Positions 22,383 to 31,715 are shown, counted from the first letter of the stretch. The stretch is 64,000 nucleotides of DNA from Candidatus Heimdallarchaeota archaeon (GCA_018238545.1 JABCTC010000011.1:1-64000), one strand, 5' to 3'. Translations and numbers: made by a program. The notes: a model not told the origin generated them from the sequence alone.

Positions 22383-23639
22383 TTAGCTTTGATTCAAGAT
22401 TAACCTAACATTAAGATCAAGTTCTTCACCTTTCTTTGTTAGACCTGTAATATATAATGTTTCATGGTTTCGTATTCCTTGTTCTTTCAATGTTGAATCC
22501 ATTTCTACATCTACTGGGTCTTTTTTATCAATTATCCAAAATGAAGGTAAAAATTCAGGATCATAACTATATCCTCTGTTTTTTATGATAGTTAGTAAAA
22601 CATCAACAGTTGCAGTTGCAGGTATTTTTACTTCTTCAATTATTGTAGCATTCCTACCACAGAGCATGCATTTCTTATTTGGTGGTTTTTCTATATAGAA
22701 GAATTTCCCTACTAATCCATTGTAAATAACATATTCAGGATTTACAGTACCAAGTTCAATTCCTTTGAGATGGTGCATAAGTTTCAATGCTTCTTGTGAT
22801 TGTAAAGAGGCTATTACAGCATTAATACTAATTATTGTTGGGTCGTGTTGGTCAACCATTTTCACAGCTTCATCCAAAGAAAATACCTTTTCAGAGGGGA
22901 AATGCTCTTTCACTAAGTTATTTGCATAGTTTATTACAAGATTCATTTCTTCCAAAATGGTCGTATCAGGGGGTCTATTGTTCTTTGACTCAAAATATAG
23001 TTGTCCTTTCAACAAACAGTGAGATTTTTTTCTTGGTATTCCCACTAGTGTACAAGCTGCTAAAGTTTCTCTTTCTCGTTCTTGCTGTGGATCACATTGA
23101 AGGCATGCATTTTCATCTGGCAAATAGGTGTAAACATGACCATAATATGTTGCAGTTCCTCCATCAATCATTGGTTTCTTAAACTGAACCGCTCTTCGTA
23201 TTAGCTCGTTTCTTGCTGTAACAGAATCTAAACCAGAAACATACATATCAGCTGTAGCATATACCTCTGGGTCAACATCTTCTAGATTGGAATGGTGCCA
23301 AATATATTTACTGTAAGGATTTATTTTCATTAGAGCTCTTGCTGCAACTTTAGCTTTAGGTTCTCCTTCATCTGCATCTGAGAAAAGTATTTGTCTATTA
23401 AGATTGGAATATTCAATAATATCTAAATCGATAAGGTGAATAGTTCCTACACCGGCCATAGCTAAGTTCTTTGCTATTTCTGTTCCCAATCCCCCAACTC
23501 CAACAATTAAAACCGTTGAATCTTTCAAAGCTTTCTGATTCCATCCAGGTAATCTAAGTTGTCTATCAAAACGTATTCTCTCATCTTTTGAAAGGGTTTC
23601 ATCGAAGAAATTAGATTTTTTTATGTTTTTTGCATTCAT
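22383..23639 (-). CDS. Ubiquitin-like activating enzyme E1 (ThiF/UBA family; UBA2/UBA3-like catalytic Cys motif; C-terminal ubiquitin-fold domain)
   Basis: RFDRQ, GVGGLG, DLDIIEYSNLNRQ, CxxC, ACTLVGIPRKKSHC. Confidence 0.9.
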   Translation of the reverse strand: MNAKNIKKSNFFDETLSKDERIRFDRQLRLPGWNQKALKDSTVLIVGVGGLGTEIAKNLAMAGVGTIHLIDLDIIEYSNLNRQILFSDADEGEPKAKVAARALMKINPYSKYIWHHSNLEDVDPEVYATADMYVSGLDSVTARNELIRRAVQFKKPMIDGGTATYYGHVYTYLPDENACLQCDPQQERERETLAACTLVGIPRKKSHCLLKGQLYFESKNNRPPDTTILEEMNLVINYANNLVKEHFPSEKVFSLDEAVKMVDQHDPTIISINAVIASLQSQEALKLMHHLKGIELGTVNPEYVIYNGLVGKFFYIEKPPNKKCMLCGRNATIIEEVKIPATATVDVLLTIIKNRGYSYDPEFLPSFWIIDKKDPVDVEMDSTLKEQGIRNHETLYITGLTKKGEELDLNVRLILNQS

Positions 23640-23770
23640 TTAAAGCACGCGTTCCATCTATCTATATTATTCAATGATAAATTCTGTGATATTTAAATTT
23701 AAATGTAGTTTTCAGTAGAAAAATAAAGAGACTCAATTAGAGTCTTCATTAAAAAATAAAAGATTAAGAA

Positions 23771-24130
23771 TTATCCTGCTGTTGAAACTGGGATCAGTAG
23801 AACTGTATCTCCATCTTCAACTCCATAATTTTCAAGAACATCGTCATTGTCACATGTTCTTCCAGCATGGGATAGATGGAATTCATCAGGTGGTAATCCA
23901 AAAATCTGGCTAACTGTATATTTTATATCACTAATTGGGGCATCAGTTGCTACAACAAGTTTTTCTTGTTTTGGACTTGGTCCAATGGTGCTTTGGAAAT
24001 ATACACTTATTTTCTTACCTGCTGGTGTTTTAGTCTTAGCAGGAGTTTTGGATTTTATCTCGGTTTCAATAACCTTTTCTTCTTCTTCTTCTTCTTCGTC
24101 AAAAGAAATTTCTTCAAATTCTTCGCTCAT
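23771..24130 (-). CDS. Ubiquitin-like modifier with acidic N-terminal extension, ending -STAG
   Basis: ISDIK..FGLPPDEFHLSHAGR..LENYGVEDGDTVLL aligns by eye with the ubiquitin core; adjacent to E1. Confidence 0.85.
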   Translation of the reverse strand: MSEEFEEISFDEEEEEEEKVIETEIKSKTPAKTKTPAGKKISVYFQSTIGPSPKQEKLVVATDAPISDIKYTVSQIFGLPPDEFHLSHAGRTCDNDDVLENYGVEDGDTVLLIPVSTAG

Positions 24131-24385
24131 TTTTTTTCAATCCTGTTAGTTTACAAATACTATTATCGAATACAATTATTAAAAAATTACCTATATTATC
24201 CAAAATAACTGTTCTTATTTAAAAACTTAAATAAACCTAAAATCTTAATTAATAACAATAAAGTTACAAATTGGGGTTTAGATAGGTTTTCAAACAAATT
24301 AGTCAATATTTATTCAAAAGCTGAGGTTTGAAAACGTTCAAAAATCAGTAAAAATATGAAAGGCTAGAACAGGTGTGACTTACAC

Positions 24386-25120
24386 ATGGGTAAAAGAAAC
24401 AAAAAAAAAGGTATTTCGAATAAAGTTCCTAAGCAAAAATTCCCGTTCGATTCGAAAATCCCAAAACATAAATTGCCTAAAGATAAAATACCCAAAAGTC
24501 AAATAAGGGATGAAGATTTTTTCCCTCCAGAAAAAAGAAAAACTCGAAAAATAGAATCAAAGCCTGTAAGATCACAGCTCAGAGACAGTCGAGAATCAGG
24601 GAAAAATAAAGGGATTCCAAAAGAGAAGATTGTTTCTAAAATCCCAAAAAGTCAAAAATTTAAGCAAAACCGTAAAAATAGCAAAAACATACCAAAACAG
24701 AAGATACCTAAAACAAAAATCCCCAAACAGGACTCTTTTTCAAGAACAGAATCACCTAATTACATTCCACAAGAAGAAAAAGCTAAACCAAAGAAAAAGG
24801 AGTCTCTTCCACCTAGAAGAGAGAGGTTCAAAGAAATTGATTCTATAGATTCTAAAGCACTAAAAAAAGAAGAGAAGAAAAAGAGAGAAGAAACACCTCC
24901 TTCTGATGATCGAGATAAATTTTCAGAAATTAAAGAATCAGATTCTCATTCACTACCAAAGGAAGAAAAAAGAGAAAAGAGAACAAGAGAAGCTCCTGCA
25001 ACTTCCAATATTGAGGAAACAAAAAAGGATAAGATACCAAAACAAAAAATACCAAAACACAAAGTTCCAAGCCAAAAATATCCTAAACAAACTAAGAAAC
25101 CAAAACAAAAAAGAAGCTAA
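24386..25120 (+). CDS. Lys-rich disordered protein with K[ILVFY]PKx repeats
   Basis: 244-aa open frame with repeated KIPK motifs; GGTG-type SD upstream. Confidence 0.65.
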   Translation: MGKRNKKKGISNKVPKQKFPFDSKIPKHKLPKDKIPKSQIRDEDFFPPEKRKTRKIESKPVRSQLRDSRESGKNKGIPKEKIVSKIPKSQKFKQNRKNSKNIPKQKIPKTKIPKQDSFSRTESPNYIPQEEKAKPKKKESLPPRRERFKEIDSIDSKALKKEEKKKREETPPSDDRDKFSEIKESDSHSLPKEEKREKRTREAPATSNIEETKKDKIPKQKIPKHKVPSQKYPKQTKKPKQKRS

Positions 25121-25138
25121 ATAGAGATAAGATATTAC

Positions 25139-25717
25139 TCATACAAATATAGCCATAATAGCTGAGTAGAGATAAATTATCCCAGAAATTAGTAGAAAGA
25201 AATTTTCAAAATATGTTACTGATGTAACAATATAAATGGTGGGGATAATTAACATTAGTAAAAATCCAGCAAATTTAGGATTCGTCCCTTTTTCACTTGT
25301 ACTTCTAAATCTAATGAATGGATATCTAATAAAGGTTCTAAAAAGCAAAAATGTACTATATAGATAATATGGTAATAAAAGAAAATCAACAGCATTGATT
25401 TCCCTGAAACTTTCATCAGGAAACCCACTAATTGTAACTATACCAAAATCATTTACACCAAAGAGTATTTGAGCTAGCAATATTAAAACTGGAACAATGG
25501 GCAAAATAAAAACGTAAATAAATTCGTTGAATGTGGCTTTATGTTTTAAATAGAACAAACTTCGAATTACATAGAATAAGGATATGAAGACATATATGGA
25601 TAAGAAAATGAAAAATTTGCCTAAGTCAACATTTCCCTCAATGAAATAGTATATGGAGACACCTACTAAGGATAACGATGTTATAAATGATGCTGTTATA
25701 TGTGTCCAAGTACCCAT
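25139..25717 (-). CDS. Multi-pass membrane protein, paralogue of the TM domain of the adjacent RING protein
   Basis: About 6 TM; shared YxKHKA..LP and P-x-I-x-x-R blocks. Confidence 0.7.
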   Translation of the reverse strand: MGTWTHITASFITSLSLVGVSIYYFIEGNVDLGKFFIFLSIYVFISLFYVIRSLFYLKHKATFNEFIYVFILPIVPVLILLAQILFGVNDFGIVTISGFPDESFREINAVDFLLLPYYLYSTFLLFRTFIRYPFIRFRSTSEKGTNPKFAGFLLMLIIPTIYIVTSVTYFENFFLLISGIIYLYSAIMAIFV

Positions 25718-25777
25718 TTTTTGACCTCAATATTTTCTAGATTAGAAGTATTTAATCTCTAGCTTTCCGCACTCATT

Positions 25778-26884
25778 TCATAATTTGTTTACTACTCTTT
25801 CAATATAGATCTTTGTTGTGATTCTGTATTTAGGATTTCTTACATATGAATTTGAAATTGGTTTATTACATCTTGCACAATATTTTGAATTTTGGTACCA
25901 GCTTCTGAATTCATCTTCATGTGCTGGATATTTGCAATGAGGACAGAGGATTATTTTTCTTGTATCCTTCTTCTCAAAATCCATGAAACATATTATACAT
26001 TTTACTTCTTCTTTACTAGCCTTACCATTTGGGAAATAATCACGAACTGTAGTTTTAGTTTTAGTGGTTTTTGTGGATTTCTTAGTTTTCTTTCTGGTTG
26101 TTACTTCAATACCAGGAGCAATTTTAGCACTTCTTCTAGCTCTAGAAACTGACTTTGTGGTTCTAGTTCTTGTTGGAGAGGATAGTTGTCTGCTTCTGGA
26201 AGTTTGAGAAGAAGACCTTCGAACTGTAGTTGATGAGGTTCTTGCCCTAGTAGAGCTTCTGCTAGGAGAACTACTAGACATTATTACTGTACGTCTTTCT
26301 GATTTTATCAGTCTAACAAATATGAAATATCTAAAAATGAAAACTAAGTATATAATTGTGAAAATGAGACTAACTAGATCAATTTTCCCGTTTATAAAAA
26401 ATCCTAGTAGAATCGTGAAAACAAAAACACTATGAATTAATAAAGGAATAATTCTTTTTTTCCTCACTTTTCGTCTAATTGCTATTGCTGGCCATTTTCC
26501 CGAATAATAATTATTGAAATGCATAGTTAATATAATAACTGGGACAATTAAAGATAAAGAAATTAAATTGAAGAATATCTCTACTGCATTCCCACTAGAA
26601 GATATCAAAAACATCTCGTAAGTTGCTGCAAACGAAGTGATGTAATTGCCCATCAGAAGTATAACAAAAGGGAGAAGTAGGAATTGAGTACTAGCAAGAA
26701 TAGCTTTGTGTTTCTTATAGTGTCTCCTTTCTAGGAGGTACCTTAATGCTACAACGACATACAAAGTGATGAAAAAAATCGTCAGCATTATAGGTGTTTC
26801 ACTCTGGATTATAACATAGAGTATTCCAACAACTAACCCAACAATTCCGATTGCTAGATAAGTTTTGAAATTATTTAACTCCAA
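25778..26884 (-). CDS. Multi-pass membrane RING-finger protein (putative E3 ligase)
   Basis: About 6 TM, S/T/R-rich linker, CIIC..CPHC....H..E..W..CARC. Confidence 0.8.
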   Translation of the reverse strand: MELNNFKTYLAIGIVGLVVGILYVIIQSETPIMLTIFFITLYVVVALRYLLERRHYKKHKAILASTQFLLLPFVILLMGNYITSFAATYEMFLISSSGNAVEIFFNLISLSLIVPVIILTMHFNNYYSGKWPAIAIRRKVRKKRIIPLLIHSVFVFTILLGFFINGKIDLVSLIFTIIYLVFIFRYFIFVRLIKSERRTVIMSSSSPSRSSTRARTSSTTVRRSSSQTSRSRQLSSPTRTRTTKSVSRARRSAKIAPGIEVTTRKKTKKSTKTTKTKTTVRDYFPNGKASKEEVKCIICFMDFEKKDTRKIILCPHCKYPAHEDEFRSWYQNSKYCARCNKPISNSYVRNPKYRITTKIYIERVVNKL

Positions 26885-26910
26885 TTAAAATACAACTCAT
26901 ATAATTTTTA

Positions 26911-27639
26911 TTAAGATTTATCCTCTTTATTTTTCATGAAAGTGTTTATAGACTCATAACACGCTTCACTACTCATTCCTTGAACTTCAACAGATAGCTG
27001 ATAATACTTTTGTTTGTCTTGATGAATGCGAAATACACCAATCCCATAATCCTCTGGTGAGAGCATCAGGGGGTCGATAACAAGTGCTATAGATTTGTTC
27101 CAAAATGTTTGATATCTTAGATGTGTTCTGTAGTCATCACCACTCAAGAATGGAGTGTAACTTGGATGGGAATGAGCCCAACCGATTATGAAATGCTCGT
27201 TACCTTTCTTGTGGAAGATTTCTGTAAATATGTTTTGATCAACAATTTCTACGCTTACAGCATCTCCTTGATCAACAGGCCAGTAATCCTCAACAATGAT
27301 TTGCTCTAGCGGTGTTTCTTCATCGCTAATTTTTCCTGTAAGTAATCCAATTACTTCTACCCATTTCTTCTTAGGGATAGAATCATTAGCATAAGATAAA
27401 GCATGTTTTGCAAGTTTTAGATAAGCTTTGGGCTTCAATACAATCTCTGAAATAGGTTTGATTTGAAGTATATCTTCAGTTATGGTTTCTTCGCTAATTT
27501 CTTTAGCTTCCTTTTCCTTTTCCTCTACAATTTTATCAACTTTGTACAATTCTAGAGTTTTTTCAATTGCTTCAATTTTCTCAAGGAGTTTTTTATATTC
27601 AGCAGGATAATTGGTTCCATCATCTTCCATAATTTTCAC
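26911..27639 (-). CDS. JAB1/MPN+ (JAMM) metalloprotease, Rpn11/CSN5-like deubiquitinase
   Basis: EVIGLL..G and GWAHSHP..FLSGDD; ALVIDP. Confidence 0.9.
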   Translation of the reverse strand: MKIMEDDGTNYPAEYKKLLEKIEAIEKTLELYKVDKIVEEKEKEAKEISEETITEDILQIKPISEIVLKPKAYLKLAKHALSYANDSIPKKKWVEVIGLLTGKISDEETPLEQIIVEDYWPVDQGDAVSVEIVDQNIFTEIFHKKGNEHFIIGWAHSHPSYTPFLSGDDYRTHLRYQTFWNKSIALVIDPLMLSPEDYGIGVFRIHQDKQKYYQLSVEVQGMSSEACYESINTFMKNKEDKS

Positions 27640-27662
27640 AACAAATTAATTATATTTTAGAT

Positions 27663-28196
27663 TTACCAGTATGATTTTGCATACTTTTTACTTATTGTAC
27701 TCGCTTTTTTGATGAATTTCTTTTTGTTATTTAAAAATTCCAAAGCCGCTTCTTTGTTAAATACATCTTTGGGATTTACATAAGCTCCTTCGACATTAAA
27801 CATGGCAAGTATTGAGTGAATGACAGTAGTGATGCTTTTGGATGGAGACCAACCATCGTGTTTTCCTACTAAATCATTATCTACAAGAGCGAGACAAATA
27901 TTTCTTTTCTTTGGATATTCTTTTGGATTAGGCCAGAAATTAGGATGCCAAATAGGTGTGTGAAGTCTTACAAATGGAGGTTTGTAAGGATAATTTGGTC
28001 CAAAGAATATTTCTAATTTATATTTACCTCCAGCATAAGGAGTCCCCTTAGGAGCTTTGAATCCTATAGCTAGATGATCCATTGACTTCTTAGCTTTGGG
28101 GAATGATTTTACTTGCGCAACTATGCCTTCTTTATGTAATTTCCTCAAGGCTTCGTAATCTTTTATGACTCTTTGTTTTCTAATTTTTATCACCAT
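27663..28196 (-). CDS. Ubiquitin-conjugating enzyme E2
   Basis: GTPYAGG.Y, YPYKPP, WHPN, ICL (catalytic Cys), WSPS. Confidence 0.92.
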   Translation of the reverse strand: MVIKIRKQRVIKDYEALRKLHKEGIVAQVKSFPKAKKSMDHLAIGFKAPKGTPYAGGKYKLEIFFGPNYPYKPPFVRLHTPIWHPNFWPNPKEYPKKRNICLALVDNDLVGKHDGWSPSKSITTVIHSILAMFNVEGAYVNPKDVFNKEAALEFLNNKKKFIKKASTISKKYAKSYW

Positions 28197-28353: not shown

Positions 28354-29046
28354 ATGAGCGTATTTCATATTGTAGGAAATGAATTGATTCCAATCACGGA
28401 GCCTTATCAGTTTCTTAATGGTGATGTCTATATTATTGAAACAAAAAACAATCTGTGGATATGGTTAGGTTCTAAATCTTTTGCTGATGAAAAATTTATT
28501 GGTTCTTGGGGAGCAAAGAAAATCGAAAGTCAAAATAAGGAGCTGAAAATTGAAACCATCAATCAAGGTTTCGAGCCTGCAGAGTTTAAGGAACAGATTG
28601 CCTTTGAAATTGTTGAAGGAGATACCTTAGGTTTTCTCAAATCAATTGACACAAAATATGAGAAAGATTTCAGATTGCTTCAGATTAAGGAGGATGATGA
28701 AGGAGCAGTGATAGTTTCAGAACTACCTATTGAACACAAACACTTTCAATCCGATGATGCTTTTGTTCTAGATGCTTACAGCGTTCTTTATGTCTGGATT
28801 GGTAAAGATAGTCAGGTTAAAGAGAAATATGAAGCTGGAAGAATCACTAGACTGTTAGAAGTAGAGAGAAAAAGATTTCCAATTATTTATGTAATCGAAG
28901 AAGAGAACGAACCTGATGGTTTTCGTGAGCTTCTCTACAAATTGGGATTAAGGGATGGAATTATGGAATTAAGAAGGACAGTGAAAAGAGTAGACGAGAA
29001 AAAAGGTTCTACATCCAAAAAATGGTGGCAGTTCTGGAAAAGATGA
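28354..29046 (+). CDS. Two-domain gelsolin/villin-like actin regulator
   Basis: Two repeats: FLNGDVYII..WIWLG..S and FQSDDAFVLD..YVWIG..S..EK; C-terminal KKWWQFWKR. Confidence 0.85.
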   Translation: MSVFHIVGNELIPITEPYQFLNGDVYIIETKNNLWIWLGSKSFADEKFIGSWGAKKIESQNKELKIETINQGFEPAEFKEQIAFEIVEGDTLGFLKSIDTKYEKDFRLLQIKEDDEGAVIVSELPIEHKHFQSDDAFVLDAYSVLYVWIGKDSQVKEKYEAGRITRLLEVERKRFPIIYVIEEENEPDGFRELLYKLGLRDGIMELRRTVKRVDEKKGSTSKKWWQFWKR

Positions 29047-29949: not shown

Positions 29950-30588
29950 TTATTCATCATTAAATTGATATCCACTTTTCTTCCAGGTTTTGTACATAGT
30001 AGGGTTTTTCTTCAGAAATTCATCCCTTTCTTTCTTTGGCACTCGATTTAAAATACATGAGAAGTTCACGCAATCCTTGCAAACATACAGTTGAATAAAA
30101 ATATACCATAGTGTTATACCGAATATTGTTATGCCTAGAAAAATCCACAATTGCCCTATTGTCAGAAATACCATTGGAATCAAGAAGATAAGATTTGCAC
30201 CCACAAGAAACTGTGCATTCTCGAATTTACTCATAGGACCTGGTTTAAATTTAGATGTTTTCAAAAATCCATAATTGATTGAGCAATGCAATGTTTTGCT
30301 CTTACCTTCAGCATAATACGGACAATGAGAACACAGTATTTGAGGTTCCCATACAAGGAAGAAAAACATGATATAACCCACCCAAGAGAGTATAGATATG
30401 AGATTCAAAGGAAATCCTAAAAGTATCAAACCTACAAATGCAGGTATAAATGCAATTGAAAAAGGTATACCAAATATTATCTAATATTTAATATTCATAT
30501 GGCAATGTAATCTACCTTTCAATCCACAATCAGAACAATTTTCTTTACTCTCCCAAATGCAAATGTCGTGAGGATTTTTGATTGTCAC
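29950..30588 (-). pseudogene. Cys-rich membrane protein interrupted by an in-frame TAG at 30481-30483
   Basis: GTG 30588 reads VTIKNPHDICIWESKENCSDCGLKGRLHCHMNIKY*IIFGIPFSIAFIPAFVG in frame with the tracked ORF 29950-30429 (CSHCPYY, CKDCVNFSC). Confidence 0.7.
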
Positions 30589-30680: not shown

Positions 30681-31715
30681 ATGAATAGATATTATCTAAA
30701 ACGCCTTCTCTCAGCAGTTTTTATAATTGCTATCATCGTAGGGGGAGTTTTTATTTCGTATGATATTGTTGGAAATACTTTTAGGTTTTATTATTTCCTT
30801 TTCTATGTTGTAGGATGCATTATAATTATCCCCACTCTTTTGAGAATTTATTGGTACATTAAGTTAAAGAGAGAAACTCGTAAACCTTCTAAATTAACTG
30901 AAGTCTATATCGATCATGCTAAGGAACTAGTTACAGATAAGGAAAAGATACTTACAAAAATCGTATCCACTATTAGAGAACTTGGTGGAGAGATTATAGA
31001 AAAATATCTTGATCAAGTTCCTAGAGTAATTTTTTATTTCCCAAATGAACATAAATACAATTTTTTTCATAGAACAACAGTAAAGGTTCTTTCAGTTAAT
31101 GAACTAGTTATAGATACGATGATGAAAGCAGATTATCCTTTGGCTTTCAGTATTAAGCGGAAAAGAGGAATGAAGAGTGATACTGGTGATGATGTTGATT
31201 TACCTAGTTCCAGTGAATTCTACATCTTTCATTCAAATCATCACTCATTCTATGAGACTCTACTTGAAAAAGAAGAAATTAACAAAATGCTAATCGACAT
31301 GAAAGAAGATTTGAAGCAATTTACACTGAATCGTAAATTTGCAGAAGCACGTATCAGAAACAGTGAAAAGGTATCAACATACCTTGAACTTCTTGCTAAG
31401 TTGTATGAAGAGCTTCTACTAAAGGACTTCGATGATTTGGAAGTTGAAGAGATTCTTTGTTATCAGTGTGATAGTGTTTTTGAAGCTAATGAGGAGACTT
31501 GTAATCAATGTGATGCTCATAGACCAACATGTAAAGTCTGTTTACTTGACTTAAAACCTTCGGAAAAGAATATTGTTGTTAAAACACCTTGTTGTGAAAC
31601 ATACGCACATAAAAAACATCTCATAACATGGTTGGAGCTGAACAGTAAGTGTCCTAATTGTAAAACTGACTTATTCTTATGGTTAAGAGGTTTAAAGCAA
31701 AATAATCAAGGATAG
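30681..31715 (+). CDS. Two-TM membrane protein with C-terminal zinc ribbon + RING finger (putative E3)
   Basis: CYQC..CNQC, then CKVC..PCC...AHKKHL..W..CPNC. Confidence 0.8.
   Translation: MNRYYLKRLLSAVFIIAIIVGGVFISYDIVGNTFRFYYFLFYVVGCIIIIPTLLRIYWYIKLKRETRKPSKLTEVYIDHAKELVTDKEKILTKIVSTIRELGGEIIEKYLDQVPRVIFYFPNEHKYNFFHRTTVKVLSVNELVIDTMMKADYPLAFSIKRKRGMKSDTGDDVDLPSSSEFYIFHSNHHSFYETLLEKEEINKMLIDMKEDLKQFTLNRKFAEARIRNSEKVSTYLELLAKLYEELLLKDFDDLEVEEILCYQCDSVFEANEETCNQCDAHRPTCKVCLLDLKPSEKNIVVKTPCCETYAHKKHLITWLELNSKCPNCKTDLFLWLRGLKQNNQG

Follow-up and report, generated by a model that had tools for sequence, protein, structure and literature searches.

Archaeal operons that encode E1, E2, RING and JAMM proteins are regarded as the starting point of the ubiquitin system of eukaryotes. 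That of Candidatus Caldiarchaeum subterraneum encodes ubiquitin, E1-like and E2-like enzymes, a small RING finger protein (srfp) and an Rpn11-like JAMM protease, and it has been reconstituted in vitro (PMC5654768, PMC6043591), demonstrating that such a gene set can work as a cascade. Asgard archaea carry ubiquitin-ESCRT loci that combine a ubiquitin ending in Gly-Gly with E1, E2/UEV, a soluble RING E3, ESCRT-I/II/III and Vps4 (PMC9192718; bioRxiv 10.1101/2023.07.25.550441). Here we describe a different arrangement in a 64,000-nucleotide stretch of DNA (the window) from Candidatus Heimdallarchaeota archaeon (GCA_018238545.1 JABCTC010000011.1:1-64000), where the region from 22383 to 28196 encodes an E2, a JAMM protease, a multi-pass membrane protein with a RING-type finger (TM-RING), a RING-less paralogue of its membrane domain (TMpar), a Lys-rich protein, a ubiquitin-like modifier (Ubl) and an E1. 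We consider it fairly probable that these genes specify a self-contained Ubl conjugation pathway at the cytoplasmic face of the cell membrane, with TM-RING as the E3 ligase.

The five functions of the Caldiarchaeum operon are found together here, the JAMM protein and Ubl match Caldiarchaeum structures, and the E1 and E2 are of the eukaryotic type. The Caldiarchaeum RING proteins are small, however, whereas the RING in the window is joined by a long tether to six membrane helices, at the end of the protein. It combines a CPxC knuckle with Glu at the sixth ligand position, and a RING-less membrane paralogue is encoded in addition. The modifier also differs, ending in Ala-Gly rather than Gly-Gly and carrying a conserved N-terminal arm. 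The first-pass annotation of this DNA had proposed a complete conjugation set, and this description holds: the E1, E2, Ubl and JAMM proteins are assigned by Pfam families and retained catalytic motifs, and the RING-type domain by residue pattern, profile match and fold.

An earlier Asgard survey scored E3 ligases by IPR018611 (UFM1 ligase), and a Helarchaeial study used the soluble RING of the ESCRT cluster (PMC9192718; bioRxiv 10.1101/2023.07.25.550441). Our full-text literature search turned up neither a polytopic RING for this operon nor an Ala-Gly modifier, although a mention in Spang 2015 or Zaremba-Niedzwiedzka 2017 is possible.

Linkage of the genes across Asgard archaea

A search with TM-RING gave matches at E <= 0.001 in 263 of 399 genomes; the weaker of these probably involve the RING finger only, but full-length matches are present in many Asgard families. 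We assembled 40 regions representing nine or more GTDB families together with 80 named loci, giving 96 unique loci after deduplication. All were picked by TM-RING, and they therefore show that TM-RING lies beside JAMM and E2 genes, not that every such E2 has a TM-RING beside it. The JAMM gene is directly upstream of TM-RING at all 96, and 91 have the order E2-JAMM-TM-RING, more than the 87 loci whose upstream sequence reaches 1,400 bases. The linkage extends over Heimdall, Hod, Loki/Prometh, Thor, Hermod, Odin and Hel lineages, and the JAMM/TM-RING arrangement is far beyond what chance would produce. The synteny survey called for in the first-pass annotation thus finds the gene linkage to be conserved.

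The usual order is Ubl(s)-E1-E2-JAMM-TM-RING (69 of 96 loci). The order in the window, E2-JAMM-TM-RING-TMpar followed by Ubl-E1, occurs at 16 loci, all from its own genus (including Heimdallarchaeota AB_125) and a sister genus; it is therefore a derived rearrangement, in which Ubl-E1 moved downstream. One contig with the full Ubl-E1-E2-JAMM-TM-RING operon (L147, DATKTP010000227.1) is labelled 'Candidatus Deferrimicrobium sp.'; its genome came from a search confined to the Asgard phylum, and the label probably arose through wrong binning or naming.

Architecture and topology of TM-RING

TM-RING bears the database name "hypothetical protein". An AlphaFold2 model built on 41 orthologues, with a mean pLDDT (predicted local distance difference test score) of 78, has three parts: six helices between residues 6 and 198 (pLDDT ~90), a disordered tether spanning residues 199-283, and a folded C-terminal domain (~90). 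The helices are placed at residues 6-27, 30-58, 67-86, 107-127, 145-165 and 170-198, and hydropathy agrees on the membrane domain. Lys and Arg residues number five in loop 2 and eight in loop 4, compared with none, none and one in loops 1, 3 and 5, and the tether, which is rich in Ser, Thr, Arg and Lys and has no alignment consensus, contains 25 basic residues (Lys and Arg) against three acidic ones (Asp and Glu). This distribution points to an N-in/C-in topology, so that the RING is predicted to lie on the cytoplasmic side, where E1, E2 and Ubl reside. The proposal that the RING-bearing protein is polytopic is thus sustained both by hydropathy and by the predicted structure.

The membrane domain has no recognizable relatives outside this system. 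Searches of Pfam and NCBIfam with TM-RING, TMpar and the Lys-rich protein returned no family at cut-off. A hidden Markov model (HMM) of the membrane domain, run against 1.84 billion representatives, retrieved 95 cluster representatives and nothing from any other family, each having the size of TM-RING or TMpar or being shorter, apparently as a fragment; an ESM Atlas search with residues 1-200 gave no usable match. Foldseek against the PDB with the full-length model yielded RING/U-box matches only (E >= 0.19) and none credible for the membrane domain. VIA-align pairs the membrane domain with human HRD1 (9uav_B) at a Z of 8.6 and a root-mean-square deviation of 3.5 over 117 residues, but this is inside the noise range of the tool for helical bundles, the same best Z being shared by FHIP1B, RabGGTase and others. 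Kinship with Hrd1 was not accepted, since the score is tied with those of unrelated helical proteins and there is no sequence-level link.

TMpar aligns with the TM-RING membrane-domain profile over 182 columns (hhalign 97.4%, E 1.4e-11), and the suggestion that it is a paralogue is well founded; BLASTP detects the relationship at 3e-4 only. It has an invariant R127/R131-Y-x2-I-R136 motif, and in the sampled loci is found only in those of Heimdall/Hod type, usually directly downstream of TM-RING. TMpar probably pairs with the membrane domain of TM-RING and is a candidate partner subunit.

Polytopic RING ligases of eukaryotes include Hrd1/SYVN1, gp78/AMFR, RNF121-type proteins, the Tul1/Dsc complex and Pex2/10/12. 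In TM-RING, as in these, a cytoplasmic RING-H2-like finger comes after a membrane domain with multiple passes, and the RING-less paralogue recalls the heteromeric membrane ligase complexes; however, neither HMM nor Pfam searches detect homology between the membrane domains. The resemblance may therefore reflect a possible mode of action and not family membership. The window cluster, which alone was searched for them, contains no Hrd3/SEL1L, Der1 or Cdc48-recruitment gene.

The RING-type domain and its alternatives

Residues C296, C299, C314, C317, P320, H322, E325, W329, C336, R338 and C339 are invariant across the 41 orthologues. The finger has the spacing C-x2-C-x14-C-x2-C-x4-H-x2-E-x10-C-x2-C, that is, seven Cys/His residues with the invariant Glu325 at the position of ligand 6. 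Among solved chains the domain profile best matches RNF24 (7.8e-6), followed by RNF4, EL5, Arkadia/RNF165 and RNF38, with weak matches to AMFR (0.29) and synoviolin (0.39) among many RING-H2 domains. In the RNF24 alignment H322 corresponds to RING-H2 ligand 5 and E325 to ligand 6, and the CPxC knuckle takes the place of C3-x-H4. Folded alone, the domain has a pLDDT of 92.5, and all Foldseek matches in the PDB at ranks 1-50 are RING/U-box domains or carriers of them (probability up to 1.00, TM-score 0.5-0.77, best E 1.5e-3); VIA-align gives a Z of 6.7 against both 3lrq and Ring1b. Ile298 and W329 in the finger and the WSP motif in the E2 are retained, and are presumably E2-contact positions as in established RING-E2 structures.

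The RING-H2 fingers of RNF24, EL5, Arkadia/RNF165 and RNF38 are thus the best matches in both sequence and structure, sharing the C-x2-C start, the H-x2-[ligand]-hydrophobic-x2-W helix and the C-x2-C end. The finger in the window differs from them in having C-P-x-C for C3-x-H4, the invariant Glu ligand, and a last pair of the form C-x-R-C with Ala, Ser or Pro after its first Cys. Because of the conserved Cys/His pattern, the RNF24 profile match and the RING/U-box fold, we classify the C-terminal domain as RING-type, with an unusual C4-H-E-C2 pattern and a predicted metal site.

The CPxCxxPA-H motif of the domain (25781-26035) also matches the C-terminal zinc finger of the IFT-A protein WDR19/IFT144 (PDB 8bbf, 3.4e-4), and the Pfam model Zf_2nd_IFT121 is matched in 19 of the 41 TM-RING members. 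This resemblance may reflect a shared finger subtype, or chance.

The 'RING' label of the first-pass annotation is upheld by fold, residue pattern and profile, but not by Pfam at cut-off: no RING model reaches its gathering score for TM-RING (zf-RING_16 0.014, zf-RING_2 0.018). Below cut-off, RING models are the commonest weak matches among the orthologues (zf-RING_16 in 35 of 41, Prok-RING_1 in 29 and zf-RING_2 in 25; best 9.8e-6), and zf_UBZ (14 of 41) and zinc-ribbon models are weakly matched too. Such scores would also suit a membrane protein that is an anchor, a receptor or the main substrate and not a ligase, its finger binding Ubl or a protein while the E2 transfers without an E3. This explanation would accommodate the Glu as sixth ligand, which makes one predicted zinc site unusual in that RING-H2 fingers have Cys there, and the residue after the last Cys, which is Asn, Ser or Asp and not the Arg or Lys 'linchpin' of many active RINGs. 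The Lys-rich tether beside the finger would suit an acceptor, and the CPxCxxPA motif is similar to the finger of WDR19, a protein not known to be a ligase. We nevertheless regard this alternative as unlikely, because the structural matches noted above are all to RING/U-box proteins, the best sequence matches are active RING-H2 ligases, the presumed E2-contact Ile and Trp are invariant or conserved, and in the functional operon of Caldiarchaeum (PMC5654768) the place of the TM-RING gene is taken by that of the small RING finger protein.

E1, E2 and JAMM enzymes

The E2 has the HPN motif at residues 84-86, a catalytic Cys101, a WSPS loop, which we take to be an SPA-like RING-contact loop, and a seven-residue insert between HPN and the Cys. 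The HPN, catalytic Cys and W-S-P residues are kept in 39-40 of 40 orthologues (H84-P-N and C101 in 39), and the closest solved relatives are UBE2T, UBC9 and UBE2L3 (~1e-14). With a UQ_con match above cut-off in addition to HPN and the catalytic Cys, it conforms to a canonical UBC enzyme.

The JAMM protein carries a charged helical N-terminal extension of ~60 residues and has the motif E92...H153-S-H155...S163-x2-D166, the residues of which are retained in 40-41 of 41 orthologues. Its closest solved relative is the Caldiarchaeum Rpn11-like CsRpn11 (6fjv, 1e-11), followed by Rpn11/PSMD14, CSN5 and AMSH; the JAB match above cut-off and the E...H-x-H-x7-S-x2-D metal site place it among Rpn11-like enzymes.

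The E1 contains a GxGGxG motif at residues 47-52, zinc knuckles at C179-x2-C182 and C324-x2-C327, and Cys196 as the candidate catalytic residue, all of which are kept in 39-40 of 40 orthologues. Uba1 is the closest solved relative (2.5e-33), followed by UBA3 and SAE2, with UBA5 at 5e-11 only. The adenylation domain, Gly motif, zinc knuckle pair and candidate catalytic Cys are those of the ThiF/MoeB/Uba family, and the C-terminal ~90 residues may form a ubiquitin-fold domain. Judged by these motifs and by the closest solved relatives, the E1, E2 and JAMM enzymes are intact and eukaryotic in type.

An Ala-Gly modifier

The Ubl ends in ...LLIPVSTAG followed directly by the stop codon; it thus lacks Gly-Gly and is mature as encoded. 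Its last Arg is 28 residues away from the C-terminus. An N-terminal arm of ~40 residues, acidic and with a KSKTP motif, is conserved among the operon Ubls, all of which end in ...LLIP[VA]STAG, some with one to four further residues; S116, T117, A118 and G119 are invariant. PF00240 is matched by 23 of 23 Ubl orthologues, and the Ubl profile matches both ubiquitin and the Caldiarchaeum Ubl (6fj7, 2mqj) among solved chains. The protein therefore has the family domain of ubiquitin sensu stricto but an invariant S-T-A-G in place of the Gly-Gly end and, from these sequence features, is classed as a ubiquitin-family modifier and not as ubiquitin itself.

The single-Gly end, together with the report of Asgard Ufm1 homologues in 2026 (PMC12962969), led us to consider Ufm1. 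No Ufm1 family is present among the Pfam matches of the 23 Ubl members, and no Ufm1 chain among the best 60 of 394 PDB sequences matched by the Ubl profile. This identity was rejected, as all 23 members are of the ubiquitin family, the E1 and E2 are not UBA5- or UFC1-like, and the E2 has HPN.

A single C-terminal Gly is also found in ATG8 and ATG12; ATG8 is attached to phosphatidylethanolamine, as is ubiquitin by the membrane RING ligase Tul1. A Ubl that similarly needs no processing, in company with a ligase that is an integral membrane protein, could accordingly be joined to the head group of a membrane lipid or to some other acceptor that is not a protein, the ligase setting E2~Ubl against the bilayer. 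We consider this very improbable: the E2 is a canonical HPN-type UBC and not ATG3/ATG10-like, the E1 is closest to Uba1, UBA3 and SAE2 and not to ATG7, the Ubl is of the ubiquitin family and not ATG8-like, and the ~85-residue tether would put the RING well off the bilayer.

In loci of the Loki/Prometh type the operon is preceded by two additional Ubl genes (for example at L064, 4746-5555, and L070, 4746-5543, both on the minus strand). One of these genes is on the opposite strand, in an open frame of ~265 codons. Its Ubl domain (about 120-130 residues, counted from the chosen start) ends in ...IALIPSRKEK without a terminal Gly, and therefore cannot be conjugated.

A parallel ubiquitin-ESCRT locus in the same genome

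A second ubiquitin locus is present on another contig of the same genome (C21, locus L162, 6278-12295). It encodes a 78-residue ubiquitin ending in TKGG-Y, a 338-residue E1, a UEV-Vps23-Vps28 fusion of 487 residues, an EAP30/Vps22-36 protein, an ESCRT-II/Vps25 protein and Vps4, and is the published Heimdall ubiquitin-ESCRT cluster (PMC9192718). Although the two loci belong to the same phylum, and indeed the same genome, and share enzyme families, the ESCRT locus has its own ubiquitin and E1 and is without JAMM and TM-RING. By its gene content the window cluster appears to be a separate system, parallel to the Gly-Gly-ubiquitin/ESCRT locus.

The presence of this full locus (ubiquitin, E1, UEV-Vps23-Vps28, Vps22/36, Vps25 and Vps4) raises the question of whether a tag on membrane proteins would be a sorting or turnover signal read by ESCRT, in an endocytic or multivesicular-body-like route, and not a signal for extraction or quality control resembling endoplasmic-reticulum-associated degradation (ERAD). 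Asgard UEV domains bind ubiquitin (PMC9192718), and the window cluster has neither a Cdc48 nor a proteasome gene linked to it. But the ESCRT locus is served by its own Gly-Gly-ending ubiquitin and E1 on another contig, and the window Ubl differs at its C-terminus and carries the N-terminal arm. The annotated genes beside the operon at the 96 loci, which were not screened for ESCRT genes, are Ubl, E1, E2, JAMM, TM-RING and TMpar only. An ESCRT-read signal thus seems quite improbable to us.

Proposed pathway

In the conjugation pathway that we favor, with TM-RING as the E3, the E1 would adenylate the C-terminal Gly of the Ala-Gly Ubl and load the Ubl onto Cys196, from where it would be handed to Cys101 of the E2. 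The RING, on its ~85-residue flexible basic tether, would recruit E2~Ubl to the six-helix protein and promote Ubl transfer; the acceptors would be lysines of membrane-resident or nearby proteins, perhaps also those in its own Lys-rich tether. The Rpn11-like JAMM would remove the tag and, in relatives whose Ubls have one to four extra residues, trim the precursor, and the RING-less TMpar would probably pair with the membrane domain of the ligase. The first-pass annotation saw the cascade as probably dedicated to modifying membrane proteins or to their quality control, which is plausible, the location of the ligase being the sole ground for the idea.

Several points weigh against this pathway. 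The finger has the sub-threshold Pfam scores, the Glu-dependent zinc site and the missing basic linchpin described above. The Ubl ends in Ala-Gly, and its recognition by E1 and JAMM may therefore differ from that of ubiquitin. In the genus of the window the cluster is split by the antisense Lys-rich gene, and no substrate, proteasome, Cdc48, ERAD or ESCRT gene is linked to the window cluster. Lastly, each biochemical step is inferred from the genes, as are heteromer formation, E3 activity and the type of substrate.

What sets this operon apart is that its RING is an integral membrane protein, found beside JAMM at every Asgard locus examined and together with a modifier that does not end in Gly-Gly. 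Should the ligase prove active, targets were already being tagged at a membrane in the closest archaeal relatives of eukaryotes, which ran two parallel ubiquitin-type systems, and the operon offers a minimal five-gene set for reconstitution of a membrane E3 and for studying the origin of ERAD-like and sorting ligases. Since the genes are linked across Asgard archaea, tagging at the membrane probably predates eukaryotes. More speculatively, the operon could represent a membrane-bound ligase system of the ubiquitin type, ancestral and pan-Asgard, that uses an Ala-Gly modifier of its own in parallel with Gly-Gly-ubiquitin; it would be a prokaryotic forerunner in function (perhaps in descent too) of eukaryotic membrane RING ligases such as Hrd1, gp78 and Dsc. 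This proposal is a tentative one, which we think doubtful as it stands; if it is true, membrane-protein ubiquitylation is older than the endomembrane system.

Locus layout and the Lys-rich gene

Seven open reading frames (ORFs) are confirmed in the cluster, six on the minus strand and one on the plus strand (Table 1). The E2, JAMM, multi-pass TM-RING and TM paralogue genes had been described as co-oriented with short gaps, and indeed all four are on the minus strand with gaps of 23, 26 and 60 nucleotides. The Ubl and E1 genes do follow on this strand beyond the Lys-rich gene, but the cluster is not a single co-oriented run. The Lys-rich gene is antisense, convergent with TMpar and divergent from Ubl across a 255-nucleotide AT-rich spacer that presumably includes the promoter for Ubl-E1, and the cluster must therefore comprise at least two transcription units. 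A scan for sigma-70-type promoters, a model not suited to archaea, found fewer sites than in shuffled sequences.

Table 1. Features of the conjugation cluster, with coordinates counted from the first nucleotide of the window.
Feature	Coordinates	Strand	Size and evidence
E2 ubiquitin-conjugating enzyme	27663-28196	-	177 aa; Pfam UQ_con, E 2.8e-26
JAMM/MPN+ metalloprotease, Rpn11-like	26911-27639	-	242 aa; Pfam JAB, E 4.2e-13
TM-RING, whole ORF	25778-26884	-	368 aa; no Pfam family at cut-off
TM-RING membrane domain, residues 1-198	26291-26884	-	Hydropathy, AlphaFold2 helices, loop charge
TM-RING predicted cytoplasmic tether, residues 199-283	26036-26290	-	pLDDT <50 over 199-275; charge
RING-type zinc-finger domain, residues 284-368 and stop codon	25778-26035	-	Invariant columns, fold, profile
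TMpar, RING-less paralogue of the membrane domain	25139-25717	-	192 aa; hhalign
Lys-rich low-complexity protein	24386-25120	+	244 aa; 25% Lys, IPKxK repeats; ORF, composition
AT-rich divergent intergenic region, Lys-rich gene/Ubl	24131-24385	none	Sequence; presumed Ubl-E1 promoter region
Ubl, ubiquitin-family modifier	23771-24130	-	119 aa; Pfam ubiquitin, E 4.2e-7
E1 activating enzyme	22383-23639	-	418 aa; Pfam ThiF, E 7.2e-55

The Lys-rich gene occupies this place only in the rearranged clusters of the window's genus and the sister genus, where it is always antisense between TMpar and Ubl. The protein is tied to the cluster by position only.

Flanking genes

A gene for a gelsolin with two repeats (28354-29046, plus strand; Pfam Gelsolin 7e-20) is divergent from the E2 gene. 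It is beside E2 only in the closest relative (L035), and is located elsewhere in the other members of the genus examined. A gene on the minus strand (29950-30429) codes for a Cys-rich membrane protein of 159 residues with no family match, which recurs within a few kb of the cluster across the genus (L035-L044; E 1e-75 to 1e-88). A second membrane RING protein, of 344 residues, is encoded 2.5 kb from the cluster (30681-31715, plus strand), and begins with two transmembrane helices; it also has a cytoplasmic region, a ribbon of the form CxxC...CxxC and a finger resembling RING-H2. This finger matches zf-RING_2 at 2.3e-5, below cut-off, and aligns with the RING of the cluster's TM-RING at a BLASTP value of 8e-5.

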